Sequence record: OL960581
DNA: 64,000 nt
Origin: Escherichia phage vB_EcoM_SA20RB
Reading direction: 5' to 3' (one strand)
The first letter of the stretch is position 1, and every line of letters starts with the position of its first letter. This document shows positions 41,486 through 45,156 of this stretch, piece by piece. A program made the position numbers and the translations under genes. The notes below the pieces were generated by a model, which saw nothing but the letters and a program-made list of their open reading frames with translations, ran no database searches and was not told where the DNA came from.

Positions 41486-42904
41486 TTATGGATAGGTATA
41501 GATGATACCAGTTTCTAAAGCAGTTTTATGAATGATGTATCCATTACGTGATTCTTGAACATCAACTTCTGGATAGTCTTTCATCATCTTCTGAAGAGTG
41601 TAACGATGCAAGTAGTATTTACTATCTGGATCTTCAGTTTTCCAATCTTTACCTTCTTCAGTCATTTTTTGGATTTCATCCATAACCCACCAACCGCACC
41701 AGATATAAGCTGAAGTACGATGTGGAAGAGGATGAACATAAGGTAATTCACCTTCTGGTTCCGGAGCAACTTTATCAGTTACCTGAACTTGACCTTCTGC
41801 TGTGATAGTTTTGCTATCATAATCAGTGGCAGTAACAGTTGCAGTAACTTCAATAGTTTGACTTCCAATAGATGATGTATCAACGGTGTATACATTAGTT
41901 GACCCTTCTACAGGAGAAGAATCTTTCTTCCATGAATACGTAATTTGTGCTTCTTCCGGAGCATCCGTAACATTAGCAGTAAATGTAGCCGAAGCATCTT
42001 GCTGAACATTAATAGAAGGAGGAGTCAATGTAACCTGTGGATTCATTGTCTTCTTATTAACTGTCAATGATACTTCATTAGAAGTAACTTCCTTTTCATT
42101 ATAATTTTCTGCAGTTACTTGGGCTACGCATTTAATTCTTTTTACTCCACTTGTAGTTGGAGTATAGTTAAATGTAGAGTTAGTTTCTCCACCAACTTGT
42201 GAATCATCTACATACCACTGATACGTGGCAGACGCTCCATCAGGTTGAGAAGCTAAGGCAGCAGTAAATTGAACCGGGGTTCCAATTACTCCAGCAGCAG
42301 GACTAGCAGGAGTTACTGCCAAGGTAGTTGTCTGCGTCTTTTTATTAACAGTCAGTGACACTTCATTAGAAGTAACTTCCTTTGTATCATAATCTGCCGC
42401 GGTTACTTGAGCTACACACTTAATTGTTTTAACTCCGCTTGTGGAAGGAGTGTAATTGAATGTAGCAGAAGTTGCTTCGCCTACAGGAGAACCGTCAACG
42501 TACCATTGATACGTAGCAGTTGCGCCAGATGGCTGTGAAGCTAAGGCAGCAGTAAATTCAACGGCTGTTCCGATTACTCCTTCTGGAGGACTATTAGGAG
42601 TTACAGCTAAGGTAGTTGTTTGTGTCTTATTTTGAACTGTGATAGTTATAGTAGCTTCTGCTGTTTCAGCATCAGTATCTGGAACTGGGTTTGTTGCAAC
42701 TACTTTAATAGTTTTTTGACCGGCAGGTCCTTTTAGTACATAACTAAAAGTTGCTTCAGTTCCATCTTGTGGAACATCGTCTACAGTCCAAGCATATGTA
42801 ATAGGTCCATCTCCAGTTTGACCACTGGGTGTAGCAGTAAACTGCTGAGTCTGATCTATAACTCCAGTAGGTGTTTTAGGAGTTATATCAACTGTAAAAG
42901 CCAT
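41486..42904 (-). CDS. hoc: outer capsid decoration protein Hoc, enlarged (472 aa)
   Basis: Ig-like repeats; aa 95-190 and 191-286 are about 80 percent identical tandem copies; C-terminal capsid-binding region. Confidence 0.8.
   Translation of the reverse strand: MAFTVDITPKTPTGVIDQTQQFTATPSGQTGDGPITYAWTVDDVPQDGTEATFSYVLKGPAGQKTIKVVATNPVPDTDAETAEATITITVQNKTQTTTLAVTPNSPPEGVIGTAVEFTAALASQPSGATATYQWYVDGSPVGEATSATFNYTPSTSGVKTIKCVAQVTAADYDTKEVTSNEVSLTVNKKTQTTTLAVTPASPAAGVIGTPVQFTAALASQPDGASATYQWYVDDSQVGGETNSTFNYTPTTSGVKRIKCVAQVTAENYNEKEVTSNEVSLTVNKKTMNPQVTLTPPSINVQQDASATFTANVTDAPEEAQITYSWKKDSSPVEGSTNVYTVDTSSIGSQTIEVTATVTATDYDSKTITAEGQVQVTDKVAPEPEGELPYVHPLPHRTSAYIWCGWWVMDEIQKMTEEGKDWKTEDPDSKYYLHRYTLQKMMKDYPEVDVQESRNGYIIHKTALETGIIYTYP
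42047..42622 (-). repeat. 288-bp tandem duplication inside hoc (one Ig-like domain each)
   Basis: Two adjacent 288-bp units (42047..42334, 42335..42622) clearly alignable by eye. Confidence 0.75.
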
Positions 42905-42913
42905 AAGTTATCC

Positions 42914-43594
42914 TTATTTTAATGTTACGAAAGAAGAATTGCGTGTTTCACGAATTAGAACTGATCCGTCGCGATTAATGTAATAAATTAAGCTAAATAA
43001 AGTTTGGTGTGCCAACGCATGTTCAAAACTAGTTGGGTGAGATTTCCAATCCGGAGTTTCAGCAATCCACTGGTAAATCCACCAAGGAACAGTGCAGAAT
43101 CCTGGATTTTTTCCAATTAGCTGAAGATTCGGACTAAAGTTTTCCGGAAGAGTAAATACAGACGGCTTTTCAGATTCAATAATCTCAGCTACAGCCTGTT
43201 CGAATTTTTCTTCAACAAAAGGAGTATCTTCAATCAAAACATCGGTATTTTCAGGAATTTTATCCGTTTCTACTACTTCAATTTTAATGTCAGATTTAAC
43301 CGGAGAATCAATCAGAAGTGCTGCTTCTGGATTGACTTCTTCATCGTCATATTTTAACCCCTCTGCAGCATCAGCAGCATTGATTAAGTCTTTAATAGAT
43401 AACCCATCAGTCTCTGGCATAGGTTCACTAGCGAGCTTCTGGAGGGCTTCTTCAATATCAACAACGATATTATCAAAAGATTTATTCTTTTTGACCTTTA
43501 TACCAAACTGTTCAGCATATTCAGCTAATTTAGCCTTAGCTTCTTTATTATCATCAAGAGCCTTCAGCTCTGCAATATAATCTTTATCTATCAT
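42914..43594 (-). CDS. inh: inhibitor of prohead protease
   Basis: 226 aa; position after hoc. Confidence 0.8.
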   Translation of the reverse strand: MIDKDYIAELKALDDNKEAKAKLAEYAEQFGIKVKKNKSFDNIVVDIEEALQKLASEPMPETDGLSIKDLINAADAAEGLKYDDEEVNPEAALLIDSPVKSDIKIEVVETDKIPENTDVLIEDTPFVEEKFEQAVAEIIESEKPSVFTLPENFSPNLQLIGKNPGFCTVPWWIYQWIAETPDWKSHPTSFEHALAHQTLFSLIYYINRDGSVLIRETRNSSFVTLK

Positions 43595-43607
43595 AATATT
43601 TCCTCAG

Positions 43608-43615
43608 TATAAATA
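43608..43615 (+). promoter_or_regulatory. late promoter TATAAATA for uvsW
   Basis: Exact 8-mer 30 nt upstream of ATG 43645. Confidence 0.6.
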
Positions 43616-43644
43616 TAGATATATTTATTACATGGTATTTAGAC

Positions 43645-45156
43645 ATGACTGACATTAAAGTACATTTTTATGATTTTAGTCACGTGAGAATTGATTGTGA
43701 AGAAAGTACATTTCATGAACTCCGTGATTTCTTTAGCTTTGAAGCTGATGGGTATCGTTTTAATCCGAAGTACAAATATGGCCACTGGGATGGACGAATC
43801 CGTCTTTTAGATTATAATCGTCTTCTTCCATTCGGCTTAGTCGGACAAATTAAAAAGTTCTGCGATAACTTTGGCTATAAAGCTTGGATTGACCCACAGA
43901 TTAACGAAAAAGAAGAATTATCAAGAAAAGATTTTGATGAATGGCTTTCTAAGTTAGAAATCTATTCAGGAAATAAAAGAATTGAACCACACTGGTATCA
44001 AAAAGATGCAGTGTTCGAAGGATTAGTTAATCGTCGTAGAATTCTTAATCTTCCAACATCCGCAGGTAAATCTTTAATTCAAGCTTTGCTTGCACGTTAT
44101 TATTTGGAAAATTATGAAGGTAAAATTCTTATCATTGTTCCAACAACTGCTCTGACAACTCAGATGGCTGATGACTTTGTTGACTATCGTTTATTCAGTC
44201 ATGCAATGATAAAGAAAATCGGCGGTGGAGCATCAAAAGATGATAAATATAAAAATGATGCACCGGTAATTGTTGGTACATGGCAAACTGTAGTAAAACA
44301 ACCAAAAGAATGGTTCTCACAGTTTGGAATGATGATGAATGATGAATGCCATCTTGCCACAGGAAAAAGTATTTCATCTATCATATCAGGTTTAAATAAC
44401 TGCATGTTCAAATTCGGTTTGTCTGGTTCATTACGTGATGGCAAAGCCAATATCATGCAGTATGTTGGAATGTTTGGTGAAATATTTAAGCCAGTAACGA
44501 CTTCTAAATTAATGGAAGATGGACAAGTAACTGAGCTAAAAATTAATAGTATTTTTCTTCGTTATCCTGATGAGTTCACTACTAAATTAAAGGGAAAAAC
44601 TTACCAAGAAGAAATAAAAATTATTACTGGGCTCAGTAAAAGAAATAAATGGATCGCTAAATTAGCTATTAAACTTGCGCAAAAAGATGAAAACGCTTTT
44701 GTCATGTTTAAGCATGTATCACATGGTAAAGCTATTTTCGATTTAATTAAAAATGAATACGATAAAGTTTATTACGTATCAGGGGAAGTTGATACCGAAA
44801 CACGCAACGTAATGAAAACCCTAGCTGAAAACGGTAAAGGAATAATTATAGTAGCTAGTTATGGTGTATTTTCTACTGGTATTTCAGTTAAAAATCTGCA
44901 TCACGTTGTTTTAGCACACGGTGTTAAATCTAAAATTATTGTATTGCAAACAATAGGTCGCGTATTACGTAAGCATGGTTCTAAAACAATCGCAACGGTC
45001 TGGGACCTCATAGATGATTGCGGTGTTAAGCCAAAATCTGCTAATACGAAAAAGAAATATGTTCATTTGAACTATCTTTTAAAACACGGCATTGATCGTA
45101 TTCAGCGATACGCAGATGAAAAATTTAATTACGTAATGAAAACAGTTAATTTATAA
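43645..45156 (+). CDS. uvsW: DNA/RNA helicase UvsW
   Basis: 503 aa; Walker A PTSAGKS, DECH box (MMNDECHLATG). Confidence 0.88.
   Translation: MTDIKVHFYDFSHVRIDCEESTFHELRDFFSFEADGYRFNPKYKYGHWDGRIRLLDYNRLLPFGLVGQIKKFCDNFGYKAWIDPQINEKEELSRKDFDEWLSKLEIYSGNKRIEPHWYQKDAVFEGLVNRRRILNLPTSAGKSLIQALLARYYLENYEGKILIIVPTTALTTQMADDFVDYRLFSHAMIKKIGGGASKDDKYKNDAPVIVGTWQTVVKQPKEWFSQFGMMMNDECHLATGKSISSIISGLNNCMFKFGLSGSLRDGKANIMQYVGMFGEIFKPVTTSKLMEDGQVTELKINSIFLRYPDEFTTKLKGKTYQEEIKIITGLSKRNKWIAKLAIKLAQKDENAFVMFKHVSHGKAIFDLIKNEYDKVYYVSGEVDTETRNVMKTLAENGKGIIIVASYGVFSTGISVKNLHHVVLAHGVKSKIIVLQTIGRVLRKHGSKTIATVWDLIDDCGVKPKSANTKKKYVHLNYLLKHGIDRIQRYADEKFNYVMKTVNL

Follow-up and report, generated by a model that had tools for sequence, protein, structure and literature searches.

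The window analysed here is a stretch of 64,000 nucleotides from Escherichia phage vB_EcoM_SA20RB (sequence record OL960581). Positions 41486..42904 of its minus strand encode a protein of 472 amino acids. This gene is hoc, as identified from the ORF list together with phmmer similarity to Hoc of phage T4, Pfam matches of the PKD/Ig type and comparison with annotated Hoc genes (97% nucleotide identity). The upstream neighbour of hoc is inh (42914..43594, minus strand), which encodes the prohead protease inhibitor and anchors the canonical hoc locus. It is followed by uvsW (43645..45156) on the plus strand. The order uvsW / inh / hoc / 24.3 / 24.2 / rnlB is the same in the window and in the annotated loci of T4, PP01, RB68 and fPS-90, and the window ORFs reproduce the canonical Hoc locus as far as gp24. 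The gap between inh and uvsW (43595-43644) is gene-free in the window, whereas T4, KFS-EC3 and T6 have a 618-nt homing endonuclease ORF there. A homing endonuclease adjoining hoc could cause local gene conversion and so add to the mosaicism of hoc.

The window protein is most easily described by reference to the capsid decoration protein T4 Hoc (highly immunogenic outer capsid protein, 376 aa; PDB 5VF3 chain Z; UniProt P18056), which is encoded by the same gene at the same locus. The phmmer match (5vf3_Z, E 2e-216) falls into two blocks. Residues 1-103 of T4 Hoc align with residues 1-103 of the window protein, and residues 93-376 align with residues 189-472. In other words, the window protein is T4 Hoc with 96 extra residues. 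This bears out the original prediction, which had read the gene as a hoc of 472 codons with one Ig-like domain more than T4. The ORF, the phmmer blocks and an AlphaFold model all agree on this point.

Reading from the N-terminus, the first Ig-like domain (42623..42904, minus strand; aa 1-94) is identical to T4 domain 1 (D1) at 77/94 residues. It is followed by two repeat units. Unit 1 (42335..42622, minus; aa 95-190) is the domain absent from T4 and matches T4 domain 2 (D2) at 76/96 residues. Unit 2 (42047..42334, minus; aa 191-286) is the ortholog of T4 D2, with which it shares 89/96 residues (93%) and 264/288 nucleotides. T4 Hoc therefore has the equivalent of unit 2, and the window protein differs from it by an additional unit on the N-terminal side. 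Ig-like domain 3 (D3; 41759..42046, minus; aa 287-382) is identical to its T4 counterpart at 84/96 residues. A 12-nt tandem repeat of 2.1 copies that encodes VTATVTAT lies within it (41824-41848) and is probably trivial. [quoted passage not shown]

Structure prediction gives the same domain count. An AlphaFold2 model built with 38 homologs contains four beta-sandwich domains (residues ~1-91, 95-187, 191-283 and 287-376) with pLDDT mostly ~85-95. The value for domain 1 is 81-93, and the C-terminal domain is of poor quality in this model. In Foldseek searches of the PDB the model matches strings of four Ig domains (Dscam, ICAM-5) and the RB49 Hoc fragment 3SHS. Among Pfam families, PKD scores 41.9 bits (cut-off 23.5), while Ig_3 and I-set, whose matches cover residues 289-373 in domain 3, remain under their cut-offs. 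Thus the N-terminal string of Ig-like domains (PKD/I-set type) that is typical of Hoc is present. So is the C-terminal domain for capsid binding with its conserved residues. Those of T4 Hoc are Y293, H295, R300, W309, W310 and E355-S-R-N-G359 (PMC10385173), and PYVHPLPHR, WCGWWVMD and QESRNG are found within residues 383-472 of the window protein. This C-terminal domain is nearly invariant among homologs. The protein is a Hoc with four Ig-like domains and a capsid-binding domain.

The two repeat units are exactly adjacent and in frame, as had been claimed. Tandem Repeats Finder reports 42048..42628 with a period of 288, 2.0 copies, 78% matches, no indels and a score of 726. A second repeat search places the units at 42048-42335 and 42336-42623, again with 78% identity, and comparison in codon register sets their limits at 42335..42622 and 42047..42334, given above. 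Both units begin with QTTTLAVTP and end with SLTVNKKT. A recount of the residues that differ between them returns the predicted figure, 19/96. However, the description of the units as near-identical was too strong. They are 80% identical as protein and 78% identical as DNA, with 63/288 nucleotides different and the differences spread over the three codon positions as 13/11/39. The longest identical in-register runs between them are 22 and 24 nt. By the Nei-Gojobori method, pS is 0.54, dS ~0.96 and dN 0.12. The units are near synonymous saturation, and they have diverged under purifying selection.

How old, then, is the duplication? A yardstick is provided by the rest of the gene. When D1, D3 and the C-terminal domain are compared between the window and ten other Tequatroviruses, orthologous dS is 0.05-0.39. 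The dS of ~0.96 between the window units is far greater, and therefore the units are much older than the divergence of present hoc alleles. This argues against the idea of a recent duplication. What remains of the proposal that Hoc "has gained" a domain by in-frame tandem duplication is that the extra domain is indeed a tandem, in-frame copy of domain-2 type; it was not gained by this phage.

Relationships were examined by comparing 23 units, taken from 11 genes, in a matrix of their synonymous differences. Orthology follows position, first units going with first units and second units with second. All first units form one lineage (A), with pS 0.01-0.34 among them. The first unit of the window belongs here, with the first units of KFS-EC3 (pS 0.07), PP01, fPS-90, UGKSEcP1, YUEEL01 and slur14. 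A second lineage (B; pS 0.04-0.30) contains unit 2 of the window and unit 2 of KFS-EC3, PP01, UGKSEcP1 and YUEEL01, along with the one unit that T4 and RB68 each have. Unit 2 of the window has pS 0.18 to T4 D2 and 0.04 to the second unit of PP01. The second units of fPS-90 and slur14 form a separate pair (B'). Where a gene has three or four units, the last of them belongs to lineage C (pS 0.01-0.09). Throughout the matrix A and B are separated by pS 0.49-0.62. Within single arrays, the window, KFS-EC3, PP01 and an IMG/VR contig have values of 0.51-0.54, and fPS-90, where the second unit is the B' variant, has 0.51.

The separation of A from B can also be followed site by site. At 21 nucleotide sites the A and B sets have no base in common, and all but one of these sites lie at unit positions 87-204. 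Unit 1 of the window has the A state at 21/21. Among sequences that were not used to define the sites, one is pure B (IMG/VR L002), two are almost pure A (L004 and G50) and one is a mosaic (HY01). A wider comparison at the protein level gives a similar picture. Among two-unit proteins, first units are nearer to window unit 1 in 30/31 cases and second units are nearer to unit 2 in 29/31. Nevertheless, the lineages are not free of exchange. The single unit of HY01 is an A/B mosaic, that of G50 is of A type except for a C-terminal segment of B type, mosaic states are seen at the diagnostic sites of the C and B' units, and short polymorphic blocks are shuffled among units. No clean gene tree can be obtained, because recombination is too pervasive.

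The number of units varies among relatives. In the best 120 protein clusters of a large protein database, the lengths are 376 aa (80 clusters), 472 aa (29) and 567-570 aa (9). A megablast search of a phage collection gave 680 matches, from which a systematic sample of 60 rows was typed by the span of the match in each record. In this sample 19 records span 1419-1425 nt (two units) and 31, T4 and RB68 included, span 1131-1137 nt (one unit). The remainder consists of one three-unit record, one four-unit record, three partial or anomalous matches at the Tequatrovirus level and five from other genera. The two-unit gene is thus present in 19 of ~55 sampled Tequatrovirus records, a frequency that applies to the 60-row sample and to database records that are not independent isolates. 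The 595/680 megablast rows with at least 80% query coverage were discarded as an estimate of how many genes have two units, since joining two pieces on one subject unit brings one-unit records to 100%. A tblastn search with a 568-aa protein found ~15 three-unit records. The largest Tequatrovirus array seen here is in hoc of slur14 (L030 1210-3204), which has 1995 nt, 664 aa, four domain-2-type units and six Ig-like domains. An IMG/VR scan yielded 21 loci with four Tequatrovirus-type genes, too few for a census.

Copy numbers of 1, 2, 3 and 4, in register and in steps of 288 nt, are therefore found among close relatives. They differ even between genomes that share 97.7-98.1% identity with the window across 24 kb, where hoc encodes 386 aa in G50, 376 aa in IME339 and 472 aa in KFS-EC3. 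The G50 gene (vB_EcoM_G50, L022 2219-3379) belongs to the closest relative of the window over this distance. In addition to its single A-type unit with the B-type C-terminal segment, it has a microduplication of 30 nt in the region of the last strand, which is in frame and repeats DNEKEVTSNE. A plain 258-nt deletion from a window-like array was considered as the source of its 386 codons and rejected, as the junction is an A unit with a B-type end and the microduplication is separate. Other irregular forms of the gene were seen. T2 (AP018813) and T6 (AP018814) have hoc genes of one-unit length that are interrupted by indels relative to T4, such that the gene lies in three ORFs in T2 (L032 10598-11581) and in two in T6 (L033 11704-12835). 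The hoc of BASEL phage FriedrichMiescher is annotated as "Hoc part 1 / part 2". These split genes are either real pseudogenes or sequencing errors. In AV113 (OR352943.1, 13776-14627) the hoc match covers 852 nt, or 61% of the query, and its Hoc may be without one or more domains, like the PNJ-9 variant. A Hoc without domain 3 has been characterised (PMC11853027).

The architecture of the window protein is shared with many phages. The 472-aa Hoc of Pu-Krd-SF5, KFS-EC3, IME340, PP01, fPS-90 and teqskov, annotated as Hoc or as Hoc-like head decoration, has the identical order D1 - A - B - D3 - C-terminal domain and 94-97% nucleotide identity to the window. The differences are point changes and small mosaic patches only, although no record is identical to the window allele (best 97.1%). 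UGKSEcP1 and YUEEL01 (568 aa) and slur14 (664 aa) have the same cassette, with A first. Beyond what the window has, their arrays close with a C-type unit, and that of slur14 also includes a B' unit.

Outside this group, Hoc of the Dhakavirus and Klebsiella T4-like phages JS10, IME341, Marfa and PMBT63 (~468-472 aa) resembles the window protein in having four Ig-like domains and the conserved capsid-binding domain. However, it is only ~49% identical, and its extra domain is a D3-type copy, as judged by eye from the similarity of D3a and D3b on a 95-residue layout. Self-BLASTP of the Dhakavirus-type proteins, as filtered, gave no internal match. Because the doubled domain there is of D3 type, that duplication is independent. 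Hoc proteins of this type, including IMG/VR L005, L007 and L011, come in lengths of 282, 377 and ~470 aa, with D3-type domains in one or two copies and D2 sometimes absent. RB49 Hoc (PDB 3SHS) and Serratia phage Muldoon Hoc (10 Ig domains) share with the window protein a linear row of Ig-like domains that ends in a C-terminal anchor to the capsid. Their sequences are distant, and the differences in domain number there are not known as copy-number polymorphisms within a genus. A separate observation concerns RB69, where NC_004928.1 112612-112884 matches the 3' end of the window hoc (41486-41758) and the Ig-domain part has no megablast match. This looks like either a cross-genus mosaic boundary at the junction of Ig domains and anchor or extreme conservation of the anchor.

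Taken together, the window hoc is very probably an ordinary, widespread allele. Its A-B array would have arisen by an old in-frame tandem duplication and has since been part of a cassette of 1-4 units that varies in copy number, with a longer fibre as the predicted function. The duplication would have occurred in the Tequatrovirus hoc lineage and left an A unit followed by a B unit at the position of domain 2. Its likely place in time is after the split from Hoc of the Dhakavirus-/Klebsiella-phage type and well before the present Tequatrovirus hoc alleles diversified. That outgroup has one very different D2, which supports a putative single ancestral domain 2 in Hoc. Since the duplication, the array would have grown, shrunk and turned mosaic through homologous recombination, some of it out of register, and the conserved unit ends (QTTTLAVTP ... 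EVTSNEVSLTVNKKT) are the likely substrates.

Which form is ancestral to present Tequatrovirus genes? The order of units is fixed, with A first, B-type units in the middle and C last in three- and four-unit genes. This, together with single units that may be A, B or mosaic and with the shuffled blocks, argues for an ancestral multi-unit array that has undergone repeated losses and some gains. We infer the polarity of these changes (duplication versus reduction) from such patterns. T4, RB68, T2 and T6 would then be reduced, one-unit forms. Given that members of the genus have anything from 1 to 4 units and that a single-unit gene may hold A, B or a mosaic, the 376-aa T4 Hoc is probably a reduced form and unsafe as the ancestral reference.

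The best of the alternatives is that the array did not come from duplication in place. Instead, unequal recombination during co-infection could have joined long-diverged A-only and B-only single-unit alleles of hoc, after which the product spread by recombination. The necessary ingredients exist. Single-unit genes exist that are almost wholly A (L004, G50) or purely B (T4, RB68, L002), the conserved unit ends would permit crossover, and recombination between T4-type phages is frequent when infections are mixed (PMC9271167). In that case the dS between units would date the alleles and not the array. What makes this origin unlikely is the constancy of the arrangement. A comes first in the arrays examined (8/8 at the nucleotide level and 30/31 at the protein level), so that no more than a single, old event of this kind would be required. 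Moreover, the fixed order of A, B-type and C is better explained by losses from one ancestral array than by arrays assembled repeatedly. Under either origin, duplication or recombination between alleles, the array in the window is inherited and not new.

A recent gain, in which the window phage or its immediate ancestor duplicated a T4-like domain 2 in frame, is much less probable still, to the point of being hard to entertain. The perfect 288-nt phase, the lack of any indel, the identical unit ends and the single unit of the reference phage T4 are what such an event would leave. However, a pS of 0.54, near saturation, is not. The copies are also not each other's closest match, as orthologs are nearer. 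First units in other phages (pS 0.07-0.30, the lowest value being to KFS-EC3) are nearer to unit 1 than its own neighbour is, and unit 2 has a pS of 0.04 to unit 2 of PP01. The array is not restricted to one genome or a shallow clade, and the A-B arrangement, equally diverged and with orthology specific to position, is found in many other phages. Shared synonymous states exclude the possibility that the A units are independent, convergent copies. The original prediction had named one 472-aa architecture with equally diverged domains in all close relatives as the mark of an ancestral duplication, and this is largely what is seen, as many relatives have that architecture and equally diverged units.

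Finally, the spurious doubling of a single unit during assembly, a general risk with tandem repeats, is scarcely credible given 63/288 differences with shared in-register runs of at most 22-24 nt (short reads place uniquely), the same architecture in dozens of independent assemblies, and an intact reading frame in which both units are modelled as confident Ig domains.

What might the additional domain do? The T4 capsid carries 155 Hoc fibres of ~180 Å, each anchored by its C-terminal domain at a hexamer centre (PMC10385173). Judging from the 98% identity of its binding domain to that of T4, the window Hoc should likewise be present at one copy per gp23 hexamer centre and be dispensable for growth. 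The 155 copies would still bind there through the unchanged C-terminal domain. The predicted fibre would be one Ig domain longer, reaching roughly 45 Å beyond the ~180 Å of T4, and would bear two domain-2-type surfaces, each with an S-L-T motif. Both window units end in SNEVSLTVNKKT, the same sequence as the S-L-T region of PNJ-9. In PNJ-9 Hoc, S183/L184/T185 of domain 2 are needed for binding to fucosylated MUC2 (PMC11853027). In PNJ-6 Hoc, however, mapping placed the contact with MUC2 in domain 1 instead of domain 2 (PMC11150434), and in T4 Hoc a mutation in D3 altered glycan affinity (PMC9271167). It is reasonable to suggest that the extra domain changes surface display or adhesion, as had been proposed, and plausible that it provides greater reach and avidity. 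The D2-type units each have a net charge of ~-2 to -3. Their variability is higher in loops than in strands (0.56 vs 0.26 bits), but this is a trend only (p = 0.09).

It is possible to go further. Perhaps the domain-2 position is a selected, recombining adhesin cassette in which old A, B and C paralogs, in fixed order and 1-4 copies, tune fibre reach, glycan avidity or specificity, or escape from antibodies across gut niches. This is a tentative idea, and the odds are against it. If it were true, the T4 Hoc of textbooks would be a minimal form typical of the laboratory and not the norm.

Part of this picture is familiar. Hoc homologs have from 1 to 10 Ig domains, and variable domain number is a described property of the family (PMC10385173). 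Variation of this kind is already known, and many GenBank and RefSeq entries label the 472-aa form as Hoc. A full-text literature search, in which coverage of older Hoc papers was incomplete, did not find the domain-2 array described as a polymorphism of 1-4 copies with old A, B and C lineages. The synthesis of copy number and lineages may therefore be a modest addition, though one that specialists would expect.

For the window itself the significance is small, as its hoc is a normal member of a common allele class. The wider point concerns how Hoc is represented. T4 display and vaccine platforms and studies of mucus adherence treat the 376-aa T4 protein as "the" Hoc, whereas in roughly a third of sequenced relatives the fibre would be longer, containing at least two modules of domain-2 type. 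Should the number of units influence mucin binding or immunogenicity, this would bear on the choice of therapeutic phages.
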